Source of the DNA: Psilocybe cubensis
Lineage: Eukaryota
NCBI GenBank assembly: GCA_017499595.2
Contig: CM039008.1
Location: 2,170,001-2,234,000, forward strand
DNA length: 64,000 bases
Direction of reading: 5' to 3'
Every line of letters starts with the position of its first letter. Positions within the stretch are counted from its first letter, which is position 1. This document shows, piece after piece, positions 35,272 through 54,486 of the stretch. The position numbers and the translations under genes are program-made. The notes below the pieces were generated by a model, which worked only from the letters and a program-made list of their open reading frames with translations, was not told the origin of the DNA and ran no database searches.

Positions 35272-37373
35272 ATGAATCACTTTGTCTTCACTCCCATGCC
35301 ACTGTGGGGTAAGCACAGAGATTTCTTTACTCAAACCGTGGTATTTATAACTGTTGTTATAGGACATTCCAGAGCGCCTTGCGTTCTGGCAGCCCGGCTT
35401 GTTAAGGAGCACGAGAGCCTTGTAGTCTCCATGATAATCCCCCCAAACTATTTCAAGAACGCGGAAGCGGAAATATCAGCAGAATTCGACGATGCACCAG
35501 AGGAAACTCGTCGACGCCTTAGGTAAAACTTGAATCCTACAACATTCCCATGGATAACCGATTAATAAATGCTCCAAACCAACAGGGTTTTCTCACCGTA
35601 CAAATCCGACAAGGATGACATCTTCTTCAATATAACAGCACTGTTTGGCTCATTCTCAACCACCTATAAATCTCTACTAGAGGCAAACGCGATTACTTGC
35701 GCTCAGACGGGGCAGGTCTTTGATAGCGCTCCATCCCCATGTGCTGTTTTTCTTGATGTGCGTATCAAAATGTTTCTACAAGCCCTTTCTTACTCATGAT
35801 GCTTCATGTTATGCCGAAATGTAGGTTTACCTTAGCCCTTTGATGTTTGCCGTACGCGCTATGTCAGGCAGCACCGTGCCTATCGTGGGTCTCTGTCCCC
35901 TCCATGCCTCGTTTCTTGTCCATCTTTATGGTCCTGAACGAATGGACGGTCTTGGAGACCTCGATGCAAAGATTGAAGCGGAGGCAGCTCGGCTCGGAGT
36001 CACAGCCAAGGATATCGGAGACACGGTATTTCCTATCTGTATTGGCAAAGCGTATCTCTGCTCACGCGCGTGAAGGTGTTTTACCATACGGAGGGAAGAG
36101 TTTCCAACGTTCCAGGACTTCCGCCAATGTATGACTGGGAGCATTTCCCGCAAACGGTGATACAAGACCATCATTAGTTTACGACGGCACTTCTGATTTA
36201 CAATTGTAGCTTCACACTATGCCTGTGGTATCCGATTTCCTGAAATTGGCATACAAGTAAGCTTTTGATGATATGCAGATTTTGAAAAGAGGATTGATCA
36301 CATTAAAATGGTAGAGGCTTCGAGACGAGCAACGCCATTTTCTCGTTTTCTTCATACAATCTCGAGAAGCAATCAATAGATGCAATGAGGTCGTGGTTTT
36401 CGGAAGACTGGAATAAGGAAGTATACACCGTTGGCCCGCTGTTTCCCTCCAAGCCTACCACCTATAGTATTTCTTCAAAAACAGCTTCCGGATCATCACA
36501 GGTCGAAGAGTTTCTGGAGACGTCATTAAAGAAGCATGGAGAGAACTCGCTGGTTTTGGTATGTTCATAGACCTGTTCATTTTGATCAAACTCATGAGTC
36601 CTTAGATTTCATTCGGTTCACTGTTCTGGCCCATAATTTCTGAATATATTGAAGAGGTTCTAGAGGCTCTGGTGGAAAAAAATATCCCATTTGTAGGCTA
36701 ATCTTGCATCGATGATTTCATTCTAACTATTTGGCAGATACTATCATGTGCATCAATCTATGCAACAGTATCAGACGAGTTAGTATCAAGAATACACGCA
36801 ACCGAATCTGGGCTCATTTGCAAATGGGTGCCGCAAAAATACGTGCTGAATCATCCAGTACGTATGAGCATTTTTTGCTGTGTATGTTGTTACCTCTATT
36901 GCTAATTGACCCCTCCCCAGGCTACAGGCTGGTTCATGACACACGCCGGACAAAGCGGCGTCTTGGAAGCTCTCGATAGTGGTACTCCAATGTATGTCTC
37001 ATTCCCAGAGCTATTATATTTGCCATCATTCAAAGGAATTCATAGGATATGCTGGCCATTTGAGTTCGATCAGCCGTGCGCAGCAGCACATCTATCGGAG
37101 AATTTACATGTTGCCTTTGAACTCGTGCAGGTTAGAACAGGGGTACACGGTATGAAACCGCTCTACCGACACGGTATGCAGGCCAAAGGCACCCGTGAAG
37201 CTGTTGGAGTCGAGATCCGAGAGGTTCTCGATGCATGCCGTGGTGATAAGGGCGCGGAGCTACGAAAGAATGCCCTGGAAATCAAAGCCCAATTCTCCGA
37301 GTCCTGGAAAGCTAATGGAGTCAGCCGAAAAGACATGCACTTGTTCTTGGAAAAATTTAACATTAGACTTTAG
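35272..37373 (+). CDS. UDP-glycosyltransferase family 1 (UGT copy 1)
   Basis: N-terminal PLWGH (catalytic His), ISFGS and PSPG-like box [44 protein letters not shown]. Confidence 0.92.
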
Positions 37374-37753
37374 TAACCGGTGCGCAATATTACGAGACTC
37401 TTTGGAAAATTAATGATTGCTTTGTGCCATCTTTCCCACTGATAGCCTTGGATATGATGTGAAAAATCTGAACGATATGGAGAGTTACCACGGGTTACCT
37501 ATCAAATCGCTCCTTCCTAAGTCCACTAGACTGTCATCTGACCAACTTGAACCAATCATAAATCGACGCCGTTTCTCGAAGCTAATCAAGCGCCCCAGCA
37601 CTCCTCTTTAGCTCCCCGCGTCAAATGTGATAATATTATCTTCATTTAGTTTAATTATCAGGATGATCTGGCCTACAAAACCCGAGAGCTAGTCTCACTA
37701 TCCCTGCAAAGCTCCCATTATCAACTTTCCGTAAGACGGGGTTCAAGCTGAAA

Positions 37754-39931
37754 ATGAGCAGCGCACTTTCCTCAATGCCGCGGAAGAGACAATACCATTT
37801 CCTTTTCTCTGCGTTTCCCGCCTGGGGTAAGTACCTTCAAAGTTTTCCTAGTCCCATAGTAAAGCAGCTGATTTATTTGTAGGCCATACCAGGGCGTTTT
37901 GTATCCTGGCCGCGCGTGTTGTAAAAGAAACAGAGAATATCACATTCACGCTGTTGCTCTCTCCCAATCATCTCGCAAAGGCTAGGGCAGAAATGACGGC
38001 AGAGCTTGGTTACGAGATGCCAGATGACAGGCTGAGGTACGCATAGTATCATTGACATTCTCGATGTGCTAAATTCAATGACACCTTGTCACTTTCGTTG
38101 TTCAGAGTCCTTTCACCGTGCAAGACAGATTCAGATGATGCATTCATCCTTATTCCGCTGATGGTTCAAACATATCCAGAGGCTTACCGAGCCTTATCCG
38201 AGGCTAAACCCGGTGTCTGCGCTATGACGGGAAAAATATTCAATGCTATCGATGCACCAGACATTGTATTCTTAGATGTATGTATTATAACTGTTGTGAC
38301 CTATCCAAAGCCAACGTATTGTCTGAATCTCATTTCCAAATAAAAACAGGTCTACACCAGTCCACAGATGCTCGCAACGCGTGCCATCACAGGACAGAAG
38401 GTACCAATAATTGCTTCAGTTCCCTTACACGCTTCATGCGTGATTCACCTGTACGGTCCTGAGAGACTGGGAGGAAATGGGGACCTGAGCGGTAAAATTG
38501 AAGCAGAAGCTACTCGACGAGGTGTCACACCGAGAGAAATTGGTGACTCGGTAATTTATCAACCCTATACTCCAATACGAATTAATTTCTTACTAGATTA
38601 ACATATAGATTTTTTATCATACCGAGGGTAAGGTCATCAAGGTCCCAGGTCTTCCTGACATGTACGACTGGGAACATTTTCCACAAGTGGCAAGTCATCG
38701 AAGCAACGACCCTTGGGGTAGAAACCTGAACAAATTAACTTCCAGCTTCCAGACGCGTTCCAGAATACGGTATCTGATGTTATAAAGCTAGCATACAAGT
38801 ACGCATTTCTGTTACCGCCCCTTTTGAGTCCCGAAATGACGCAAATGAAAGAGGGTTACAGGAGTGCAATTCCGTTTTTTCACTCACGGCGGAAGACTTT
38901 GAACCCGTATCGGTGGATGCCTTGAAATCATGGATACTAGAGGAATGGGACAAGGAAGTATTTGTTGTAGGCCCTCTTCTTCCTTCCAAACCAACAACGT
39001 ACGGAATTGAATCCGATGGTGGCGGTCATGAATCATCAGAGATACAAGATTTTCTAACAAAAACCTTGAAGCTTCACGGAGAGAAATCCCTGGTTTTAGT
39101 GCGTCGTTTTATACTGACTGGAACATCTGAAAATTTTCACCATTGTCTTGCGTAAGATTTCATTTGGGACCCTATTCTGGCCCTCAATTGTGGAGTATCT
39201 TGAAGAAGTCGTCGAAGCGTTAATAGAGAAAGACTTCCCATTTGTAAGATCTCAATTTACGGAAGGCAAATATTTACCTCACTGATCTATATTAGATCAT
39301 ATCATACGCATCACCCTTTGGAAAGATATCCGACTCCTTAATCGATAAAATTCGTCTGGCTGGCTATGGCTTGATCTCAAAATGGATCCCACAAAAATTT
39401 GTTCTCGACCATCCAGTAACTGCGTTTCATTTTCTTCTTTTACATGGCCCTAAGTTCTACATTAGGCCACAGGATGGTTTGTCACTCATGCCGGGCAAAG
39501 TGGTGTGTTAGAGTCCCTCGATAGCGGTGTCCCAATGTGCGTCATTCGAAACTTGAAAACCCTTCTATTGCTGAGAATGGTTCATTTTGGATTGACACCA
39601 TAGGATATGCTGGCCGTTTGAATTCGACCAGCCACTAGCCTCTGCGCATCTCTCAGAAAATCTGGATATAGCATTTGAGCTAATTGAAGTTAGAACAGGG
39701 GAACATGGCATTAAACCCTTGATGAGAAACGGAAGGGTACCAAAACGGTCCCGTGATGCCGTTGGAATCGAAATTCGGGACATACTGGAGAAGTGTCGTG
39801 GGCCCAAAGGAGCAGTCTTGAGGGAAAATGCCCAAAATATGAAGGCAAGACTAAAGCAAGCCTGGGAACCTGACGGAGTCGCCAGAAGGGACTTCAACAC
39901 TTTCTTGAAGAAGTATGGAATTAATACTTGA
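37754..39931 (+). CDS. UDP-glycosyltransferase family 1 (UGT copy 2)
   Basis: FPAWGHTR, ISFGT and [44 protein letters not shown]. Same exon layout as copy 1. Confidence 0.92.
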
Positions 39932-40174
39932 TGTTTGAAGTCCCCACTCTCTGGATATGACGTCTTTGACTACAACATAGATACATATATTATATCAACC
40001 CACCAAATTAGTGTCATTAATCTTATCTAACTGATGCAACCGCAACATGTCCATCATTGATCCACAATCAAACAACTTGTTTTAGTGGGCCACCGCGGAG
40101 CGTGGCATGACGAGTCTTTACGATTCAGCGTCACGCTTTGTAATAATATAATATATATATAATATAATATAAAT

Positions 40175-41149
40175 ATGTCCAACTTTGACGTGGATATCGG
40201 TGCAATGGACGAAGTGATATTCAGACTCCAAGGCATAGTTAGCGACAAGATGCTACCACCAATGGCAAAGCCTGCTTCGTACGTCCACTCCATTGAGGTG
40301 AATTAATTACAAATGAGGACTGTTACAGCCGCGACAGAACGGTCAAGCAACAACCATATTTACGTACCGCCATTGCTATCACGGGACTCGGAGACATTGT
40401 GTTCAATAAGGTGATGGAAAAGCTAGAAGAAGTTTTCCTCCGTTTTGCAAACAATTTTCCCGCGGACAGCGTCAGCGGCTATGACCCAGTTCTTCACAAA
40501 GACACGGGTTTCAATGTTTTCCATGCGCATAGCCAATATTTCACGAAGGTATCCGCATATCAAGACAAATCTGACAACATAGGTTTTCATCCCCTGGTCG
40601 ACCCTGATAACATGTTGGCGTCCATGGTAGGGGACAGTTTCATCCACGCAATCAATAACAAGGTACAGTTTCTTCGTCGGGAGATACTTCCTGACGGAAC
40701 AGCCAGGTATGTTTAGAAAATACCAACAACACATCACAACCAAACTAATATCATGTTGCAACAGATATTATTCTTATAATCCTGCCTCCATACGAATTGG
40801 AGACATTGTCGAGATCAGTGTTGCCTTTGTCGCATTTCCTGCCCAAGGAAACAAGTACAAATTTGTTGTTGCTCTTCGCGGAATACTTGTCTTGGACCAG
40901 GAGGCCAGAGAGGTAAGCAATGTTACATTGAACAGTCTCATAGCCATTCATAACTTCCAACAGAAAGCTGATATTCTCAGAATGCGGTCGCGCTATACTC
41001 CAGCGAAAAGACAGGTTGCTGTTTTGTGTAGGACAAAGAGGCAGCTGTACAAAGGTCAGATTGACATTGAAGACACGCAACAGAGGATGGCACGTATGCG
41101 CTTAAATGAGGACACAGTCCACAATAGCAATACTATGTCCCAAGATTAA
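40175..41149 (+). CDS. Element-borne hypothetical protein (agaricomycete 'FRLQGI...DPxxxL...GDIVE' type; possibly OB-fold)
   Basis: Four exons with GT-AG introns give EVIFRLQGIVSDKMLPP, AITGLG, YFT, VDPDNML, HAINNKVQF, PASIRIGDIVEISVAF and VALRGILVLD. May be 5'-truncated. Confidence 0.6.
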
Positions 41150-41292
41150 TACATATGTACATAGAAAGACAAGGATATCATAAATGTGCTGAACGAACAA
41201 TCAATCCATTTGCGTGAACATTGTAAATAACAAGGAATAATTTGTCAAGTCATTTTCATGACAGAAATTATCTGAAGGTGTTAGTTGGCACC

Positions 41293-41475
41293 CCATGGGA
41301 GAATCCTGCGTACACTGTACGCAGAATATTCCCACACTCGGCTGAATATCGGCGAGGAAGTCCGTGGGAGAATTCTGCGTACACTGTACGCAGAATATTC
41401 CCACACTCGGCTGAATATCGGGAGAGGTTGACCGTGGGAATATTCTGCGTACACTGTACACAGGATATTCCCACG
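41293..41475. repeat. Three tandem ~69-bp units, each containing a ~40-bp palindrome
   Basis: Unit core GTGGGAATATTCTGCGTAC-ACT-GTACGCAGAATATTCCCAC (consensus), starting near 41296, 41365 and 41435. Confidence 0.9.
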
Positions 41476-41555
41476 CTCATCCGCAAGTCAAACTTACAAA
41501 TTAAGACAAAAAGAATGAGGACGAGAACACAAGTTTATTTCGAACAAAAATTTGA

Positions 41556-42531
41556 CTAAGGATGGAAGAAATTACAAATATCCATTCCACAAGAGGCTTT
41601 GTGGTTGAGGGCAATGCAACCAAAAAATATCTGCCTTTCTGGATAGCAAATACAAAACAGTTGCATGTACACGGTCATCTTTTTGCCTACATTACAGGAA
41701 TTAAATTGACAAATACTAAAACTAAAGAGCACACACCTTATACCCCTTTCCCAGGATTTGATAGCTTTTTTGACACGCTTGTGTAATTGGTAAACATCTG
41801 CCGCTGTGTAGTGAAAATCTAATGCAATACCGCTGATGCGACGGACACCAAAATGCAAACAATCAAATTCATTGAGCAATAATGCCCACAAATTGGCTTC
41901 AACAAAGGAAGTCTGATTTGCTTTGGGTAAAAGAGGCAAAGAATAAACCCAACAATGCCTGTCGCCAACCCGTCTAATCCCAGGAGAGAACAACTCTGGA
42001 TAAGGATCGTAATCCAGCACAATGAGAACATGACCACGAGATGAACTATACCCAACATTTACATTGTCCCTGATAGACTGTATTCTGCTTTGGATATGGC
42101 GGTCCATTTTCAAAGTTTGCGATGGAATGGAAAAAACAAATTTCAAGCCATGGGAATGATATTTTGCAAGAAATTTTTGCGCGCGCTTGAGGTCGGCAGA
42201 AGGTTGCAACAGAGAGACTTGATGTCCAAAGGTAGCATTTGGATACAAGCTGTACACCTTCTCAAAGGTAACAAAATTCATGACGCTGGCTGCAGTAGAA
42301 CAAAATTGAAGTTAACATTGTTTTGACACATGACATTGGGGACATACTGCTATGATACCCCAAAATGCACTCTACCACCGATTGACAAGTCGTAATCAGT
42401 TGGACAAAAGAACCTTGGCACCATAGGTTAACAACCACTCCAGTAGTATTGTAATGTTGATGAAGAGGATGTTTATCTGTGCTCGACATACATGTCCATG
42501 TCACCCGGAATCCATATATTAGCACGATTGA
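41556..42531 (-). pseudogene. C-terminal half of a split nucleotidyltransferase-motif gene
   Basis: Reads NRANIWIPGDMDMYVEHR, then a stop/frameshift, then VQLITT..VVECILGYHS, MNFVTFEKVYSLYP, KY..HG and RRVGDRHCW. Joins in frame to 50153-50465 when the nested element is removed. Confidence 0.7.
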
Positions 42532-43132
42532 TTACAAAACTTTATGTAAGTAAAGCGAGTTCTTTTATCCCCACAACCCACTGTACAAAAATATGTCCTT
42601 GCCAATTGTCCCCATCAGTAAATCATTGATGCCATCAAAATTGCGTGATTAATACCGGTTTTTTACTTAACCGGTATGCTTGACTTAATAATCGGTTACT
42701 ATCATAGAATTTCTGTTAGTTTTTGTTCCTACCAAGGGGATATGGAAATTAAAATACTAGATATTAGCTAGGTAGATAGGTTAGCTGCCATATGGTAGAA
42801 AACAAAATTAGATACCATTACATTATGACTTTTTAATTGCAAGTTAAACATTTTGACACAGATAATCATTGCTCATAACCAAAAATTTTATAATAATGAC
42901 CTCATTCAACTGATTTAAGGCCATTAATTAGTCACAATCAATTACATACCAACTGTTTTGCATGCTTTATACACCTCTAACGGCAAGTAGAGGTAAATAG
43001 AATGCTTTATTGTTATCAAAAAAAATTTAGCATGAATGACTAGCAGACTGTGGTGGCATAGAATAAAAAATAATAAACATTATGTATCTAGCTATTATCT
43101 TTAATGCCACTTCAAATAACTTGTCATATTAA

Positions 43133-43485
43133 ACTTGTTGTGCTGTTCATACTGGCCATGAATTAATAAGCAGACTGTGGGAATAACTTGCATATAGTGT
43201 ATGCAAGTTATTCTCACGGTTGCCGCACTTTGCATTGAGCAACTTGAACTTCTCTGGTAATTCCTGATATATTACTGAGATGCATTGCATATACTTTAGG
43301 TAAAATACAAGTATTTTTGGCAATAATAATTATTTTCAGTCCTAGTTTAGATGATCTTATTATATTTTACTTGCTGTGGTGTTTGTACTGGCCGTGAATT
43401 AATAAGCAGGTCGTGGGAATATCCTGCGTACAGTGTGCGCAGGATATTCCCACGGTCACTACACTCAATTTGCATTGAGCACTGG
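43133..43485. repeat. Two diverged direct repeats (~236-bp spacing), each with the same palindrome family as 41293-41475
   Basis: ACTGGCC[A/G]TGAATTAATAAGCAG followed by GTGGGAATAACTTGCATA..TATGCAAGTTATTCTCAC (about 43178-43217) and GTGGGAATATCCTGCGTA..TGCGCAGGATATTCCCAC (about 43413-43453). Confidence 0.85.
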
Positions 43486-44102
43486 CCACTTTGGTCAAGA
43501 GATGGTCATTTTGAATAATGTTTTCCATGCATTGAATGTATTTTGGGGAAGAAATAATGCACTAACACTTGCAAATTATGCTTGAAATATGTTTCCACAC
43601 AGCCAATTGTGTTCACAGCAACATCAAACTATACCAAAAAGAAATATGCGCACCAAACAAATGTTTTTGCACACAATATTGTTTCACTCTTGATGCACTT
43701 TTCAAAAATAAGAAAATTATATTTATGGGAAATATGTCCCCACTTGGGCAGCCATACACATGAGCATTCTTCCATCAGTTTTCCATACGGGATTCTCCCA
43801 GACTCGACTCCAGTCTAGTTGGGTGGAATACACTTACTAATAGTATGTACATGTTGTATCCGAATACCTAGCCACCAAAAATGCCAAGAATTGTATTTGT
43901 TCCCAAATCAGTAAAACCCGGGTTGGGTATTCCACCTAACTAGACTGGTGGGGATTTACCGTAAAGCAGTGCGTGGATGTTTTAAACTCCGTCTACCCTT
44001 TTTCGGACACGCATCAGATGCGCATCAATGATTCATGTGCATACGCGTCAACGCGTCATCCCCTAATTACTGTTTAACTGGCCGTTTAGCCTCACGAAAA
44101 AC

Positions 44103-47100
44103 ATGTCGTACCCTACTCCCACCTCGCCGCGCAGGTCGCGACCCTATAACGATGAAAACTCAAGCTCGCCGTTGATGATTCGTACCCCCAACAATCCATT
44201 TCGAAGCCCGCTGACCGATCTGTCAAGCCAAACTAGCCCAAACTTCTCCACACCCGGTGTCAGCCACTTTTCTCAGCCCCTGCTGTACACGTTCGTTTCC
44301 ACGCCTGCCATTGCTACCCCAAAACCTCGAAAAAAGCGTCGTGTTGCTCAAAATGTCTCGCCGAACACTAGACGACGACTTACAGAAGATTGGCAAGAGC
44401 GAAATAGTGCTTCTGTGGAGATGCAAAAAGAGGAAGAGGATAGGGATAATCGGGCCAAAAAGACCCGAATGCTTGACGAGGCATTTAAATCGATACGAAA
44501 GGCGGGTTTCCCAACGTTTCGGCACTTCTTGGAGGACGCACTTACCGCTCACGACCCCTCTCAAGCATCACAAATATCTCAACTTGTCAAAAACCACGGG
44601 CCCGCCTTGTTTTCTTTAGGTCGGAAATTGCAGCCCGCCATCGTCGATGACTGGATTATTTCTTCACACCGAGAGCTTGTCAGCATGCAGTGTAAGGCAC
44701 TGGCAGAGCTATTTCAGCCGCCGCAACTGTCCAGAGTCACGGATACGCTTTCTCATTTCTCAATCAAGCAGTACCTTGCTGATGCGGAACGTGTAGCACC
44801 TTTAATATGTGACATTCTTCGACAAATTGGCTACCCGAACGGCGCTCGAGAGTCAAAATACAAGAACCGTGAACTGGTAAGTAAAATTCTAGCAACTATT
44901 CTTCGATATTCTACTCAATATACATGTATTCTAGATCATTGCAACCGCTCTGTGTATGCTTGCAAAGTCACGAAACGAGCATGCTACAGAGTTTCAAACA
45001 ACAATGGGCATGTACTTTCTAGCGTCTGGAACTCAAAGCTCTCTGTTTGCTGTTCTCAACCATGCGGGCATTTCATTATCGTATACTCAGGTGATTTTGA
45101 AGCTAAAGCAGCTATCTCAAGAGCGGCTCAAGCTTGCACAGACTATTGCTCGACTCCAAGCCTTTATGCTTATTTGGGACAATTTGAACTTTAGATTCAT
45201 TGTTGCTGAGCAGCGTCATGATGCAAAGTCGCATTTTGACAGTGGAACAACTGCTACAATGGTGCCATTATATGGTTTTAAACACGGCGAGCTTTCTTAT
45301 TCTTTAAAGCCTCCCCGTTTGCGGCATGTCTTAGAACTGGATATAAAAGCTGAAGACCTTTTACCGAGTGCCGAAGAAGCTCTTCGAGTTCAACAAGCGC
45401 AAATCTGGCACATTTCCGATATACTATATGATGCGTTTCCAGATCTACGAAAGCGTATAGCTAAGACTATTCCACCTTTTCCTTCCGTGCTGCAGATTCC
45501 ACTCCACAAAACTGAGCAATATCCGCTTCCAGCAATGCATATCGATGAATCAAGCCTCGACGGCACACTACAAGTCTTTAACTCCATTCTGAAGGACTCG
45601 CTAAAGCTGACCGAAGAGGAACTCAAAGCTCATGGACTGATCATTTGCGCCGGAGATCAGTTGTCGTTATCACTTCTTGACAAGGTATGTCGATGCTTAT
45701 GTACTACAAATATTATTGTTTACAATTACTTCTATCAAGGTGTCTGCAATCCGTCGAGATGATACAGACTTTATGGATAACATTGGCAAATATACGCTAG
45801 GTCAAGACGGCCTTCTTCATGTCAAGTTCTCGCACACGCGAATGGTTGCTAATGAGTACTGGGGTAAACCGAACTCAAAATCACCGTGGTCGCTATGGAG
45901 AATCAACACGCTTCTAGGGCGCAAGCCTGTCTGCGCTGGATGGACAGCAAAATCTCCTGCTCCGTTTCGGCCTATATGGGAGCTTATTTTGAATCTCACG
46001 CTGCCGGCTCATATTCTTGATGCGTTTCGCATCTTTTGTTCTGAAGAAACTGTTGAAGCGTGGGTGAAAAAGGTTGATCATCATGATACAATTGCTCTTG
46101 TTGCCCAAAAGATACATGACGAACTCTGTTCAGGCCACCGAGTGGCCCAGCTTCGTCAAGAGAGGGCTATCAAACGTGACGTACCTCTTGAAAACATTAT
46201 CTTGTTTAATCGTGATGCTTTGCACCTTCGACAACTCAAGTATGCGATCAAACAAGGTGATGTGGGTGCCGTTTTGGACCTTATTACTCATTTAATGCTC
46301 GCCTTTCGAGGAACGGGACATACACCTAAATATGCTGATGCATTATTTCACATTGTCATCAATTTAAAGCGGATGGATCCATTGCTTCGGTAAGACATTA
46401 TCCTTTCTATTTATGATTAGAATGCTAATGTTATAATTTAGACGTGCCTGGCTGTTTAACTGGCTTGCAAATCTGACCGGTAAACCCAATGGTTTCAAAG
46501 AGATGGATCTTCTTCAAGAACATTTAAATTTTTGGCTAAAAGTATGTTTAACAATCTTTTTATTCTAATTGGACTCATAAATTAGTATTACTAGGTAATA
46601 TACAGTGCCAAGGGTGTTAACCGAACGTGGGCATGGCTGAGCATGGTCTCCGTATGCATATTTGCGCTTCGAGACGTTATTCGCAATGTGCGCGAGGAGT
46701 TTTCAATTCCATTTAACAGCATACGTCATGCTATGCCATCAACATCAACAGACGTAAACACAATCCGCACCTATCTTCAGGCCCATCGACTTCAAGAATT
46801 CTGTCCAGCTAGGGAAAACAATGCCGCTGCAGTTGAAGCACGGGATCTCATGGTAATAGGTGCTCATTATGCTAACAAACCAAGTGCGTTTCGCAATTTC
46901 CGACATACAAAGTTCAAAACAAAAAATCATGGTAATGCTGGCGAGCCAGATTGCGTATCCGCTGATGAAGCAGAAGATGAAGAGGCCCAATGTTTGGGTA
47001 ATATTGACGTGGGAGAAGACCTTGAAACTGGGCTCGAAGACTTGCTTTTGGATGAAGAAGAATACCCAGAGGGTTTAGATGCGGAAAATGTTTTTGCTGC

Positions 47101-47140
47101 GGTTAATGAGATTATAAATGAAATGCGTAGTTTAGATTAA
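44103..47140 (+). CDS. Putative Academ-type DDE transposase (DUF6589-like), five exons
   Basis: Motifs IWDNLNF, PLPAMHIDESSLDGT, AGDQLS, GLLHVK, IKQGDVG, FRGTGHTPKYA and EMDLLQEHLN. The exons appear to splice into an intact frame. Confidence 0.8.
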
Positions 47141-47159
47141 GGTGAGTAACTATATATTT

Positions 47160-49431
47160 CTAACTACTATCGCTCATATTACCACTTTCATCGCTTTCAT
47201 AGATTGTATTCATATTAAATTCTGTTGCCACTGTACACCATATAAGTGGAACTTGAGGTAACGCATCCGAGAAAACGTGAGCGGTTTTTGGCTTTTTCCA
47301 TTTTAATGAATTTGTGCTGGTAGGCTGCTGTTGCTTGCGCTGCAAATGTTTGCGAGCTTCGATTGGCTGGTTTTGCTGATCAAGCACTTCGTAAATGACT
47401 TCTAACTGTTGTATAAGCATACGTCCAAGCTCATTTGGACCACCTGTTTCTTCATTATGCCCCCGGTTCCATCGCACGTGAGCACAAAGTGTTGTATAGT
47501 CACAAACCGATTCTAATCGATGACCGCAGGTTGAGATGGTGGCAATGGTTTTGTCGGAAAGAATCAAAGACCCAGAAAGGCTAGTAATACCTGGGTATAC
47601 CTTTCCAAAGAGGATGGTGTCGCGCCATTCCGTAAGTTTTTTTCGAATGTATGCAGCTTCTTCATCCGGAACCTTTTTCTTCTTTCCTCGCTTTAAACCC
47701 TTTACCAATGGTACGGATGATATTTGAGGTACAAGAAACAAATGTGGCTGACAGTTGTCACAACAGCGTACATTGTTTCCTGGTCGATATGTGCTTGTGA
47801 TTCCGTAAATTAAACCAACTCAAATATTATACTGTTAGTATATTATATTGTTCAAACATTTAACGCACACTCACGTTTCTTGGAATTTTGAAAAAATCTA
47901 TTCCAAATGATGCGCCGGCATAATTTGGTCTGTGCATAAAGCAAAAGTGCCCGCCGTTCATGAATGTTGGTTTCTTTACCAAAACGTTTCAGCCGTTTTG
48001 CAGGAGCTGTTGATTTTTCTTGACGTATCCCTTCTTCATCAACATCTTCCGTGACTTCATTATGCTCAATGGTCTCAGGTTCAGCTACTTCCAACTCGAA
48101 AATGGAATTAATTTCCGCAGGTGAATTGGATACATTTTCTTTCATCACGCTTTGCGGAATAATCATTATAGCTTCTCCCTGAGTATCCAAGTCACGGGCA
48201 GCTCTACCAGCCTCCTGGACAAATCCACAAAAGGTAAGTGAAAGCCCCCATACAATAACTCGGGAAATGTTTCGATAGTCGCATCCCTATATGTATAAAT
48301 GTAAGTAACCACTAATTAAATGGTACAAGAAAGAAATTTACCATTCCAAGTGCAGTAGTAGTAAACAAAATGCGAACCTTGCCTTTTCCGAGTAGAGATT
48401 CTAGCTCGCGCTTTTTTTTTCGCCTAGATAGGCATGATAAAAAGCAATGCAGCTTGGTATAATCCCTTGCTCGTTAGCCCAATCTCGAGCACGATCTGCA
48501 CATATTTCTGCTATATCTCGTTGATTACAGTATACCACTGAAACCAAAATGTCGTCAGGACAGGTTGCATTTTCAGGAATCAGAAAGCGAAGATCTGCTT
48601 TTGATTCATCTGAATGCTTCATAACCCGAACAGACAGAGCAACATTTGGTCTCTCATTAGTAACTGCAATTGTGCGCACCTCTTTTGTTAGACTAAGAGT
48701 GCTTTTAACGTTGTCAAGAATGTGATCTGGAAAGGTTGCTGATGCCACTACAATTGGTACATTGCGTGGAAGCCTGCCCCGAAGTATACCTAGTTGCTGA
48801 TACTCAGGACGGAAAGTACCTCCCCACACTGTGATGCAGTGTGCTTCATCAATGTTTACAGCACGTAGTGCATCAGTGAATGAAACCTTCATAAACACTT
48901 CACGGTGAAACTCTTGAGATACAATAATCTCAGGAGACACAATGACATGCCGAAACTTCAAGTTAACAATATCCTATTAATAATTAGAGTGTTATATTGA
49001 TTTAAATTAGACTTGTGCTTGAAATTTTACACATACCAAATACATTTGGACCTTGCCAACACGGATAGCAGTTTCTTGACATACTGCAATGGTGGGAATA
49101 GGACTACCATTGGCCTACATGACTCCTCAATTAGAGTTTATTAAGAGAAACACCTAAAAATTACCTGCTCTATCATCAAGGCTGACAATGGAGATACAGT
49201 CACAGATACTGTTGTCTCATCAAGCAGCAAGGGCAGAATAAAGCATATGGTTTTTCCACATCCCGTTCCAACATCAAGAATAAGATCATGGCCACACAAT
49301 ACCGTTTTTGCGGCATCAAGTTGCCACTGAAACGGGCGCCTATCAAGAACCTCAAGCGCCCTTTGAGCAAGAAGAGAGATATTAAAATCTTCCTCCTTGT
49401 ATATCTTCACTCTGGACTCGGGTGGGGACAT
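47160..49431 (-). CDS. RecQ-like superfamily 2 helicase of the transposon; apparent -1 frameshift in an A9 run at about 48412-48420
   Basis: Walker A GTGCGKT, VSPLSALM, IDEAHCI (DEAH), SAT, YCN, FYHA, TTALGMGCD, motif VI QEAGRAAR and Zn-like CRR...CCDNC. Confidence 0.85.
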
Positions 49432-50152
49432 GAAATTAGGACCACAAGAGTGGCCTATATTTTCGGGGTTCTTATAAATAAAACTTGTTAAATTTCAGGC
49501 TTCAAAGTATTCCAAAAGTACAGAAACGAGATTGAGGTGACTGGATCAATCTTGTTCCTCATCTTTGTATTGTGAATTACATGCGAATTTTGGGTGCTTT
49601 TATTCACAATATTTGAGCAGTAGACTTCCATTATATGCTATTTAATATTGGTTATACTTACACAGATTAGAACATATGTATTTGGGTAAACGATACAAAA
49701 GTTTTGCAAAGGTACGAACGCCAGGGGTTTTGATTCCCAAAATAGATAGACGGAGTTTAAAAAGTCCATGTACTGCCTCACGGTAAATCCCTTCCAGACG
49801 ATCTGGTACGAATATCATTGATGGGATACCCAATGCGGGTGCAACCCGTTTTCGGACAAGATCGGCTGGGGTCGAGACTATTTAGCAGGTATGAAAATTA
49901 TAATAGACAAGTTCTTCCTTACAATTAGGCCTTATAACCTGTGCAGCTATTTTTTGTGTCTGACACAACTAAGCTTGTAGTAGACCTAAGTCATAGTAAT
50001 TAATCATAACCTTGCCCAGTATCTGGCTGTGCATTCGAACATATTAATATATATTAACTATGTTATATAAATCTAGATTAAAAAATATTTTATACAATTG
50101 TGAGATGTAAAGTCTTGTCATGCCACACTTTGCGTTGGACCACTAAAACAAG

Positions 50153-50465
50153 TAAAATGCAAAACGGTGGAACCTGAAATAACCAGGCCAGTCTTGAACT
50201 GGAGAAGACGAAACAGCAAATGTTCATTGGGTTTGAAGATAGGAACAAATAAATTTTTGGGACAGAAGGCGCGGCGCATATAGCCCGAAATGCAGTTGTT
50301 TAGCTCCTTGCAAGTCCAAGAGAAACGGTAGAGGGTTTTCAGATCCATCTGATCCATGTACACATCGTCCATGGGAGCCGGAAAGACTCTAACAAATAAG
50401 TAATAACCAAATGAGATAAAACAGTGAACATACTGTTGGAAACGGGGGGATAACGCAGAAGCCAT
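50153..50465 (-). pseudogene. N-terminal half of the split gene (F-box-like start followed by ISGS)
   Basis: MDLKTLYRFSWTCKEL...FRLLQFKTGLVISGSTVLHF. The reading continues into the element end (TCFSG) exactly at the insertion point. Confidence 0.7.
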
Positions 50466-51759
50466 GGGTAAAACAGTGCGGAGAAAAGTGCATTGTCTAT
50501 ACTATGTCAATAAATATATTAACCGTAAGCCGATAGACGCCCGACGTAGGGGAAGAACAAATTGGTATGCATGAGAAACAATCATGAATCAGAAAATCAA
50601 ATTCAAATAGTACAGAACACCCAGAACCCAAGAACGCGTAATTATTTCTATTTGAACTCTGATTGATGAAGCTACCGATATCAAGGAACGTGTGTGCCTG
50701 CACAGTTCTATTTCCAACCTTTCAGACCCATAGTTCAAAGAGTGCATTTGTTCCATCTCTAAGTATTAGTACAATATATAAGCACGTTGGCTAGACAGTT
50801 CCACATGGTTTTAAAAATTAAACAACAACGCAAAAAAGTGAATTGAGTAGGACTATTGTTGTTGGGTATAATTAATTTTATAGAAACGCACATTCACATT
50901 GCGATCAAAACAAATCAAAAACAACCTTTAAAGTAACCAATGGTAAAAAGAAGTCGTAGAATGAATTGGAAAGGGGTTGCTTAGGGGGTCCGGTGACCGC
51001 TTAAGGAAAATACCGATAGCGGTAACGACATTGATCGCATCAATAATATTTTGATGGGGACAATTGGCGAGGACATTTTTGCTCGCTGGGTTGTGGGGAT
51101 AAAAGAACTCATCTTTACTTACGTAAAGACTCGTAACATACGTGTGCTGAAATCAAATAGTGTTATTAGGTTTTTGTCTCTTTTTACTCAAGAAACACTA
51201 CGACTTTGGTGAAAGAGATGATAAGCTGTGGCCATTTGCTATTATAGATATCTAATAGAGCAATGGAGTCAATGCAACGTTACTTGCCTTTCATACAGCT
51301 TCAGACAACTTCTCGTCGATTTTCAGGCAAATTGGCATGCCAACACCGAGGGCATTTGCCGGGTATTGCCCAGCGTCTCTGACCACACGCCGTTTCCCGC
51401 TGCCAGCAAGTGGTACTGTACAAATACCTTTTAATATGAAGACGAAGCTATCGGCAGTTTGTAATCTGAAATCTTAGTCAATTTATTCATCCTTCGTCTC
51501 GGAACTCAATGGTAGAACTCTGGGACAAAAGCTATTATTTTGTTGAAAGTCAGATAAGATAAATTCACACTTTGAGAGATATCTATAGAGATATACATTA
51601 CAATTTACATAACGTAACAGAGATGGTCGTATGTTAATTTCACATCAGGCTTTCCTGATGCAGTGATCGTAAGTATAAAGGGGGAATCTGGTAGCATGGA
51701 CATTTGATATACTATTAAATCTCAATCTCGTTCCTTCCCACTATTTTGAACCTCAGAAA

Positions 51760-53881
51760 ATGTCATTGAATGGCAGGAAAATGCACCATTTCATCTTTTC
51801 TCCCTTGCCGTTGTGGGGTAATGTGCTTCATCCATCTTCAAACATTGTCTTATTGAGATATACAATACTAGGACATCTTAGAGCCCCGTCGATTTTGGCT
51901 GCACGCCTCGTTAAGGAACACGATAATCTTATCGTCTCCATCATAACCTCCCCAAGCTATTTCAAAAATGCAGAAGCCGAAATATTGTCAGAGTTTGGTG
52001 AAGTCCCGGATACAACTCGTCGACGCGTTAGGTCAGATTCCTAGACCAGGGTTAAATCACAATCACACATACTCACCATAACAGGCTATTTTCCATCTAC
52101 AAGTCAGACACGGACAACGTTTTTACGCACATAAGGTTACTTTTCCAAACATATTCTGTTGCCTATCAAACTCTTTTGGATGCAAAACCCATCACATGCG
52201 CTGCAACGGGTATGATTTTTGAGGCGGCACCTCGCCCCAGCGCCCTATTTCTCGACGTGAGTCTGGATATTCATTTTCATACATGCATTCACTCCTGCGT
52301 TTGAATATAGGTATACGCATCTCCTTTGATGCAAATCACGCGTGCACTTTCAGGGACTACGGTCCCCGTCATAGCGTTGTGTGCTATACATGTATCCTTC
52401 ATTCTTCACCTTTATGGTCCCCAGAGCATGGGTGGCGAGGGAGATCTGGCATCCAGGATCGAGGCAGAAGCAGCTAGACGTGGCCAGCCTGTCTCCTCTG
52501 AACTTGGTGATGAAGTAATCCCACTTTCCAGTAGCAAGAGCAACCCATATTGATGGCTGTCGATTTCAGGTTTTTTACCATACGGAGGGAAAAGTAACCA
52601 AGGTTCCAGGACTACCCCCAATGTACGATTGGGAATACTTCCCACAGAAGGTAACTGTCGCCAGATTCATCGAAAAAATTTATCAGACTGACGCATAGCC
52701 AGCTCTCTCCCACACCGAATGTGTCTGATTTTCTGAAGTTAGCCTACCAGTGAGTGTCATACCCAGAATCAAATCTGATCGTACCTGACGTTTACCGAAG
52801 AGGACTTGCTTCCTGCGATGCGGCCTTTTCCTTCTCTGCTTACGATTTGGAGAAGGATTCTATTGACGCAATGAGATCGTGGTTCTCGGAAGAATGGAAC
52901 AAGAAACTATACACTGTTGGCCCGTTGTTTGCATCGAATCCGACCACTTATGGGATGGTATCGGATAGTAACAATAGTTCGTCGGATATCGAAGCATTTC
53001 TGGATAAATCATTGAAGGAGAGAGGAAAGAACTCATTGGTGTTGGTACGTTGATTTATTCGTAGCTTGATAATTTAGCACCGAGCACTAAAAAATTTCGG
53101 CGCTTAGATCTCATTTGGATCCCTTTTCTGGCCTATCGTGCAAGAGTATATTGAGGAGGTGATTGACGCTTTGATTGAGAAAGGATTCACTTTCGTGAGA
53201 CGATTTCGATTTCTTTGTTTCTTCGCATTAAGTCCTTGCAATAGATCGTGTCATACGCACCACAATTCGCAAAAATTTCGCAAGACCTGATCGATAAGGT
53301 CCAGGCAGCTGAGACTGGGTTGATTTGTAAATGGATACCTCAAAAATTTATTCTAAACCATCCTGTAAGTCTCCCTTTTAAACATACCACTATTTCTCCG
53401 TATAATTATGGACTCTCCCGTTAGGCTACTGGTTGGTTTGTCACTCATGCAGGTCAGAGTGGTGTTATGGAAGCCCTTGACAGCGGAACCCCAATGTATG
53501 CTTCCATTGTATAGCCTTAAACCATCGCTCAAGAGGTTTTCGATGCCTAGGATTTGCTGGCCATTCGAGTTCGACCAGCCATGTGCATCGGCACACCTTT
53601 CGGAAAACCTGAATGTCGCTTTCGACCTCATTCAAATCCGGACAGGAGAAAAAGGCATGAAACCCCTGTACAGAAACGGTCTAAAGGCTGAGGGCACCCG
53701 TGAAGCTGTTGGTATCGAAATCCGAAAGATTCTGGATGAATGTCGAGGTCCCAGAGGGGAAGAACTACGAAGAAATGCCCAAGCGATAAAAACCAGATTC
53801 GCCGATTGTTGGAAGGTCGATGGAGTCAGCCGAAAGGATTTCAACTCATTCCTGGAGAAATATAAGATTGACTTATCGTAG
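51760..53881 (+). CDS. UDP-glycosyltransferase family 1 (UGT copy 3)
   Basis: PLWGHLRAP, ISFGS and WIPQKFILNHPATGWFVTHAGQSGVMEALDSGTPMICWPFEFDQ. Looks closest to copy 1. Confidence 0.92.
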
Positions 53882-54486
53882 ATCTTATTGAGTACCCAGA
53901 AAATCACTTTTGGCCTCGGCGGAAACTCAAAAACAACTAATAAGCAGTCCATGAATCGGATGGTACTAAACCTGAATGCGAGCTTCGATGCTTGTGGGTT
54001 TGAAGGCCCTGTGACTCATCATAGATAATGTTTATTGTAGGACTTGTCTGGATATAGATACCTTCATAATACACCCCAATTATCAATGAGAACCTACACG
54101 GGCACCGGGTGCGAATGTTTCGTCATATGGACAGGTTGAGAGCAGAGAAACGAAGGAGCCGGAGCAAATAATTTACTTTGTACTCAATATCTTTATTCCA
54201 CTTCAGTTTTCAATATTATGTAGCAATCTCGTCTTTATAAAGAGATTTTGATTCATTTTTAGGCACACCGCTGCTACATTTGTTTTTTTTCCAGGGCCAA
54301 TCTGTCACCTCGACATTTGGTCCGACTCATATTCGTATGATTAAGCAATATCCTCTGGTGCCCGACCCAGGCGTTTTTGAATAGTAAGTGTGAGATTCTG
54401 TGACTTCATTTAGGATGACTCTGGCGTGCTCGAAAGTAGAATTCAGATCATATTTGTAACGATACCTTTAAAAGAGCAAGCCAAAG

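Follow-up and report, generated by a model that had tools for sequence, protein, structure and literature searches.

On the minus strand between positions 40075 and 40122 of a 64,000-nt stretch of Psilocybe cubensis contig CM039008.1 (hereafter the window, meaning the whole stretch that was analyzed), a short subterminal repeat, a hairpin and the tetranucleotide CAAG stand in close succession, and the question is what kind of mobile element ends there. The original prediction saw in them a Helentron/DINE-1-like end structure. We interpret the motif as the right-hand (3′) end of a rolling-circle transposon of the Helitron2/HLE2 type that is non-autonomous and a deletion derivative of the 26.4-kb C3 element, and put the probability of this reading at roughly 0.93.

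Ends, copies and target site of the outer element

The outer element occupies 40076-51136 on the minus strand (11,061 bp), as delimited by copy boundaries and by reads that skip it in two runs (X17 and X18), and measures ~5.1 kb if an AcademH-like insert is subtracted. A sequence check located all of the motifs previously named in this region where they had been said to lie. The 5′ end (51112-51136) has the form that was predicted, with TT (51136-51135) preceding a subTIR (51134-51122; ACGAGTCTTTACG on the minus strand) that overlaps a hairpin (51129-51112) with a 7-bp stem and a GTAA loop. The hairpin folds with a z score of -2.64 (5 of 200 shuffles equally good), and the 24-nt end is identical in 27 of the 30 outer-type 5′ ends found by a genome pattern search. 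At the opposite end, the 3′ subTIR (40110-40122) lies 34 nt before the terminus and is complementary to its 5′ counterpart at 13 of 13 positions. It is followed, after CAT (3 nt), by an 18-nt hairpin (40089-40106; 4 bp, a 1-nt bulge, 3 bp and a 3-nt loop), the terminal CAAG (40079-40076) and the T at 40075. This order, too, had been foreseen, except that the spacer from hairpin to CAAG is 9 nt and not about 10. With a fold of -5.7 kcal/mol (z -1.10), the 3′ hairpin by itself is unremarkable in stability; its support comes from conservation in 26 related ends and not from energy. Degenerate patterns of the 3′ and 5′ ends matched the genome 67 and 57 times, respectively, against 0 and 0 for reversed controls, so the end patterns are not chance; Rfam gave 0 matches within window positions 39900-51400. 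The element sits amid a tandem UDP-glycosyltransferase-like gene set (window ~35300-39950 and 51800-53900).

Collecting genomic copies and comparing their flanks, as had been proposed, fixed the ends at TT and CAAG|T, immediately beyond which the flanks diverge, sharply at both ends. A 3′-end search returned 42 matches (40/50 candidates scored), including 28 outer-type ends that begin at one identical base, and the 5′-end search gave a similar picture. The family has ~28-30 ends in the genome, mostly of 5-kb copies that are ~99% alike (98.5-98.9% identity when one 5-kb copy was compared with others). Among 26 elements paired by coordinates, a set that does not include the window copy, 18 measure 4.9-5.3 kb, one measures 5.8 kb, three are lengthened by nested inserts, three are long forms (8.4, 9.0 and 26.4 kb) and the remaining one is an inner-type element that stands free. 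In X17 and X18, which are other runs under the same species label, 36 and 38 reads (about flank depth) skip exactly 11,061 bases; therefore, the window locus is empty there and without duplication. Read depth on the outer element is ~20 times that of the flank. The outer family expanded recently, and strains are polymorphic for its insertions. In the raw reads over 40076-51136, C>T and G>A are about threefold commoner than the reverse in both runs, in line with methylation-driven decay of copies. Two composite structures were also seen: an outer copy inserted in the inner element of another outer copy (C1:4181389-4191566) and two 5′ halves joined head to head, without 3′ ends (C14:211452-215131).

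T-adjacent insertion without a target site duplication (TSD) had been expected, and this is what the copies show: 24 of the 26 paired elements lack a duplication longer than 3 nt, no consistent TSD emerged, and the empty sites are exact. Exact empty/filled comparisons total four, namely the window locus, the site of the inner element (7,621 bases skipped by 39 and 40 reads) and two pairs within the assembly, where outer copies lie inside an inner copy (A|T) and in repeated sequence (T|T). The empty inner site holds a single T, and the F-box-like frame is restored there. At every one of the 28 distinct 3′ flanks, CAAG is followed by T and then by a variable base; the base preceding the element is A in 14, G in 11, T in 4 and C in 0 of 29 cases (purine in 25/29; binomial p 1e-4 against 0.5). 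The unit TT...CAAG inserts precisely before T, mostly after a purine, and without target duplication. Its target is mainly purine|T, not TT, and the family does not share the usual Helitron2 preference for T|T insertion. The boundaries fit TT...CAAG at N|T, T...CAAGT at T|N and T...CAAG with a 1-nt duplication alike, and these cannot be told apart. Direct repeats flank two of the 26 paired copies, one of 45 nt (C3:3668727/3695134) and one of 41 nt (C5:318230/313161); both start with TCAATGT, and the 41-nt repeat has 5 extra bases copied from upstream. There are weak signs that the target resembles the element's own end: position -5 is G in 15 of 29 5′ flanks (p 4e-4, several positions having been inspected), and CAAG immediately precedes the element at 2 of 29 sites. 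Joined ends, whether of a circle or a tandem, gave 0 matches in the assembly and none among 15 of 45 joints in reads, the latter being a weak test in short-read DNA at a 2% threshold.

The RepHel partner and the likely source of the 5-kb copies

The original prediction proposed a search for an autonomous partner that combines an HUH-type Rep with a PIF1 helicase and shares these termini, and such an element lies at C3:3668727-3695134. Over its 26.4 kb, the 5′ end is identical to that of the outer family, the 3′ end has 1 mismatch in 46, and shared parts are 95.7-97% identical to a 5-kb copy, with 67 of 97 transitions between the two forms at CpG. Its RepHel, a stop-free frame of 2781 codons antisense to the element ends, matches DUF6570 (E 7.5e-42), Helitron_like_N (3e-31) and PIF1 (2e-28) in Pfam, has the motifs HLH, YVTDYVTK and GMGGTGKT (Walker A) and is of HUH/Y2 type, and its helicase part is similar to Helraiser (PDB 7lcc, E 1.2e-10). 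The termini go with a DUF6570-Rep-PIF1 RepHel, and not with a DDE transposase or tyrosine recombinase. No Pfam match to an endonuclease domain was found at E 0.1 in the 2781-aa frame, which argues for Helitron2 rather than Helentron. The last 294 aa gave no significant PDB match, and a search for a tegument-like deubiquitinase reached E 0.4 at best, which lends that idea no support. This C-terminus (L114:699-1580), a stretch of ~290 aa following the helicase, has a W-x-x-x-x-x-S-C-A-Y-D-S motif and Cys pairs that also occur in metagenome relatives, and might conceivably be a cysteine-protease-like domain.

The RepHel is integral to the C3 element and not nested in it, because a 451-codon frame crosses the joint where two copies of 8-9 kb lack 17.9 kb, and because a decayed, diverged element at C5:1778120 has a CAAG end, an F-box-like gene and a RepHel (69% identical) in equal order and spacing; the 5′ end of this C5 element was not found within ~35 kb. 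In the 5-kb family, everything between the second cargo gene and the last 101 nt of the C3 element has been removed, and the C3 element, with its predicted, unbroken RepHel frame, is likely the parent of that family. Only one copy of a cognate RepHel with an intact frame was found in the genome. Near either end of the C3 element lies an F-box-like gene (the two are 46% identical), and palindrome arrays separate its convergent genes, a layout that would be compatible with the reversed RepHel being of chimeric origin.

In the window copy, the F-box-like cargo gene (41556-50501, minus strand) is split by the inner element into 50501-50153 and 42531-41556, and in the C3 copy its frame is open across the site. 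Look-alikes in Atlas belong to Basidiomycota clusters, in one of which F-box is found on 11% of members; no cargo frame, whether of the window copy or of the C3 element, had a Pfam match under E 0.05. The second cargo gene (40175-41149, plus strand), recognized as an ORF, is convergent on the first and starts at the deletion joint, and has a homologue at the equivalent place in a sister family (tblastn 32%, E 1e-11). Three palindromic repeats of ~47-70 bp (41293-41482), found by repeat search, lie between the two convergent genes, and related ones occur at 43094-43481.

The sister family (22-24 kb; 7 DUF6570 matches, two copies 99.99% identical) has an equal terminal layout, a 5′ hairpin with a fold z of -3.77, a 2808-codon RepHel in sense, and short derivatives of its own. 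An alternative hypothesis is that the outer element belongs to HLE2 but that the 5-kb burst was driven by the RepHel of this sister and not by the C3 type. The sister is the younger and more numerous coding family, and its ends share TTACGAGTC, GACTCGT, the hairpin shape and CAAG|T with the outer family. However, its subTIR departs from the outer one at position 8 onward, the sister RepHel shares just ~50% identity with that of C3 over the core, the sister has short derivatives of its own, and the ends of the 5-kb copies match those of C3; we consider this a minority possibility, at about one chance in five.

For the reading that we prefer, a deletion derivative of the C3 element, the steps of transposition can be sketched from Helitron biology and from the available portion of PMC3627910. 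A RepHel supplied in trans, most likely of the C3 type and possibly from the sister family, would nick at the 5′ TT, after which its helicase would displace a single strand. The stop may be marked by the two subTIRs pairing with each other, together with the bulged hairpin, and a second nick after CAAG would free a circle for insertion at an R|T site. Being decayed and on the opposite strand, the inner ends would be ignored.

Elements nested in the window copy

The inner element (42532-50152, plus strand) is of a related subfamily, lies on the opposite strand to the outer element at an A|T in the F-box-like gene, with limits given by the read skips, and is ~1.5-1.56 kb long without the AcademH-like insert. 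Its 5′ end (42532-42555) comprises TT, a subTIR and a partial hairpin; its 3′ end (50107-50153) comprises a subTIR, a weakened hairpin and CAAG followed by T, and the subTIR pair at 42534-42544 and 50108-50118 reads as originally written. The element is absent, at the identical base, from three long copies, and nested inner copies occupy one position in 24 of 24 cases; therefore, one insertion was copied with its host. Before the spread of the outer family, a related ~1.5-kb element inserted once, in opposite orientation, and the inner element is this single old, decayed insertion, copied passively. The decayed ends have a hairpin of -3.6 kcal/mol, or -1.4 kcal/mol (z +1.60) in the window copy. 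The claim that both inner ends had changed together held for T/A at subTIR position 6, which is two-sided, but not for the G-to-A change, which does not covary. That one of the inner changes could be CpG decay had itself been suggested, and correctly: nested 5′ ends read ACG in 18 of 24, ACA in 4 (including the window copy) and ATG in 2, so that G-to-A represents sporadic CpG decay.

Three free inner-type 5′ ends occur elsewhere in the genome, and the free element at C7:3335822-3343760 combines inner-type ends with Rep and PIF1 fragments. As the CAAG|T and A|T targets also resemble those of Helitron1, it could be argued that a canonical Helitron1 RepHel serves these ends, with CAAG as a variant of CTRR and the C7 element as the partner. 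This is very improbable, as the RepHel piece on C7, a broken insert of 2.8 kb, shares 95% identity with a distinct element on C13, starts where inner-family homology stops and had no DUF6570 match, whereas DUF6570 is present on all intact partners with these ends. The C7 RepHel was accordingly rejected as a nested piece of another Helitron. Helitron1/HLE1 elements have 5′ TC, 3′ CTRR and no subTIRs; here, the 5′ end is TT, the 3′ end is CAAG and subTIRs are present.

A separate AcademH-like DNA transposon (43800-49880, plus strand) lies within the inner element, with a DUF6589 gene (~44103-47140, plus strand) and a RecQ/DEAD-like helicase gene (~47160-49490, minus strand), both assigned by Pfam. 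The insert is 99.9% identical to a C2 element that has its own TIRs and a 9-bp TSD; AcademH TSDs are reportedly 9-10 bp, as Kojima is said to have noted in 2020. AcademH elements combine a transposase and an SF2 helicase with TIRs; the insert fits this with DUF6589 as the putative transposase, a DEAD-type helicase and, in the C2 copy, TIRs and a 9-bp TSD, and the helicase and a Basidiomycota range are described for AcademH in the available portion of PMC10799480. Both genes belong to this AcademH-like passenger and not to the HLE2 element. Within the outer family, the insert was seen in the window copy only and is missing from the other copies examined. Unlike its C2 twin, it has no TSD in the window; 19 bp of host sequence are missing where it sits, 2 bp at either junction are common to insert and host, and it looks like a capture by break repair rather than normal transposition. 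Although a repeat finder reports an 85% inverted repeat of 47 bp (40075-40121 and 50107-50153) that encloses a transposase-like gene and a helicase, the notion that these are the TIRs of a cut-and-paste element encoding the DUF6589 and RecQ-like genes is refuted by copy boundaries and can practically be discarded, as copies extend 984 bp beyond 50153, to 51136, the flank after the inner CAAG is identical in all nested copies seen, and the DUF6589/RecQ block is missing from the other copies and is bounded on C2 by TIRs of its own and a 9-bp TSD.

Relation to known Helitrons and reach of the end signal

An HLE2 (Helitron2/Helentron-type) assignment holds on end layout, on the absence of a consistent TSD and on the DUF6570-Rep-PIF1 partner, whose RepHel is placed in HLE2 by DUF6570, an HLE2 marker according to the available text of PMC11417382. 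What stands of the Helentron/DINE-1-like label is the HLE2 layout; a strict Helentron/DINE-1 identity does not, as no endonuclease domain was found and a TT target is not needed. The portions available of Bao and Jurka (2013, PMC3627910) and HELIANO (PMC11417382) describe for Helitron2/HLE2 asymmetric TIRs (ATIRs) of 8-15 bp, with the 5′ ATIR 0-2 bp from the T start and within the 5′ hairpin; a 3′ ATIR adjoining the 3′ hairpin, rare TSDs and a RepHel in either orientation (PMC3627910); and DUF6570 (PMC11417382). The outer element likewise has a 13-bp perfect ATIR pair with the 5′ copy 2 nt from the end, a 5′ hairpin into which part of that copy is folded, and a 3′ ATIR just upstream of the 3′ hairpin. 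It differs from these descriptions in ending with CAAG before T instead of a T run, in a target that is mostly purine|T (25/29) instead of TTTT|T/C or T|T, in a 3′ ATIR that lies 34 nt instead of 20-30 nt from the end, and in its two duplications of 41-45 nt, compared to 7-19 nt.

Helentrons and DINE-1/HINE elements, as far as the available text of Thomas et al. (2014, PMC4067079) goes, share a 13-bp subTIR with a nested inverted repeat close to the 5′ end, a 3′ subTIR with a stem-loop, deletion derivatives that outnumber the parent and, in Helentron-Da-40, an antisense RepHel. Unlike them, the present family has a single-T empty site, and neither an endonuclease domain nor variable T tails were seen. 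The Phytophthora proto-Helentron of the same source, revisited in PMC11417382, resembles it in 5′ TT, 3′ C-x-A-G, A|T insertion and an HLE2-type RepHel without endonuclease, but ends in CTAG, whereas here the end is CAAG and, at either terminus, subTIRs and hairpins lie where they normally do in HLE2. In Fusarium oxysporum, FoHeli1-5 (Chellapan et al. 2016, PMC5148889, in the part available) are fungal HLE2 elements with ATIRs and hairpins, self-insertion and, in some subgroups, a reversed ORF, and a FoHeli1 circle was demonstrated by PCR; their ends (TCAG...ATTTT or TGCCT...CTCCTGT) and target (TNAT|T) differ, with no sequence likeness to the ends here. HELPO1/2 of Pleurotus ostreatus (PMC4289320, in excerpt) are also mushroom Helitrons with cargo genes and short derivatives, but have canonical T[C/G]...CTRR/CTTG ends, a RepHel of ~1400 aa and no reported subTIRs. 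HLE2 has been catalogued in several Agaricomycetes by HELIANO (PMC11417382 supplement), and Helitron2 entries from Agaricus and Laccaria appear in the PMC12730594 supplement; the outer 5′ motif is absent from the available portions of both. Repbase and HELIANO element sequences aside, no description of CAAG ends was found in the accessible literature on Helitron2/Helentron in fungi. It is plausible that the family is undescribed, within a group already catalogued in Agaricomycetes by HELIANO and Repbase. It would then be a new family of a known kind; it is well bounded and has a conserved end signal.

A metagenome search with the 3′-end pattern gave at least 120 matches, 80 of which were examined. 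At positions that the pattern left free, 71 of these 80 ends form all four inner hairpin pairs, and pair 4-15 is Watson-Crick in 74/80 (shuffled mean 38). In an alignment of 26 hand-picked ends (21 of the 80 plus 5 from this genome, relatedness not controlled), the hairpin of 4 bp, bulge, 3 bp and triloop is paired in 98.9% of cells, a value reached by 0 of 500 shuffles, and slid controls are 16-47% paired. Two of its pairs changed on both sides, both by CpG/TpG exchanges, which mutation bias could favor. Among 12 loci for which a candidate 5′ end was identified, 11 have a subTIR position 8 that agrees with the 3′ copy (7 T-A, 4 C-G), a two-sided change not explained by CpG decay. A RepHel occurs at 3 of the 80 loci, upstream of the CAAG-type end and in sense in all three, and by RepHel likeness the metagenome contigs are probably fungal. 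At E 1e-20, the number of homologues of the Rep region is 535; DUF6570 is present in all 120 listed, and those that are named are from Agaricales. RepHels of CAAG-ended elements are 46-70% identical to that of C3, compared to 24-36% for other HLE2 types here. In a tree that includes 11 hand-picked members of the 120 listed homologues, and in which the C10 row is a long branch and L220 fills less than half of the columns, the RepHels of CAAG-ended elements form a single clade (support 100/99), separate from this genome's other HLE2 types.

We speculate, with the odds against us, that elements ending in CAAG represent a separate and widespread lineage of HLE2 in mushroom-forming fungi, and that their ends are hybrid, combining Helitron2 subTIRs with a Helitron1-like C-x-R-R|T end and a purine|T target. 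Their RepHel would read a bulged hairpin of fixed shape as the stop, their targets would loosely mimic their own 3′ end, and occasional extension of the target strand before joining would produce the ~45-nt duplications. If so, unbroken RepHels in both orientations within one genome would be a ready system for testing Helitron2 ends, which are defined from sequence and whose role, to our knowledge, has never been tested in a reconstituted system. For such a test, the family offers ends that are fixed to the base, naturally occurring compensatory changes in subTIR and hairpin, an unused decayed nested pair, polymorphic sites and stop-free RepHels. The subTIR-pairing model is itself a proposal (PMC3627910, available portion), and opposite-strand self-insertion, a proposed route to reversed RepHel orientation (PMC5148889, likewise in part), is visible here in one genome. 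The end pattern also detects elements that CTRR-based tools would miss. Other HLE2 families in this genome (the C10:2026465 region and C4/C9) have different ends and copies that are 99.9-100% identical, and one of them ends in a TGCCT hairpin like that of FoHeli3-5, with a RepHel that is 24-28% identical.
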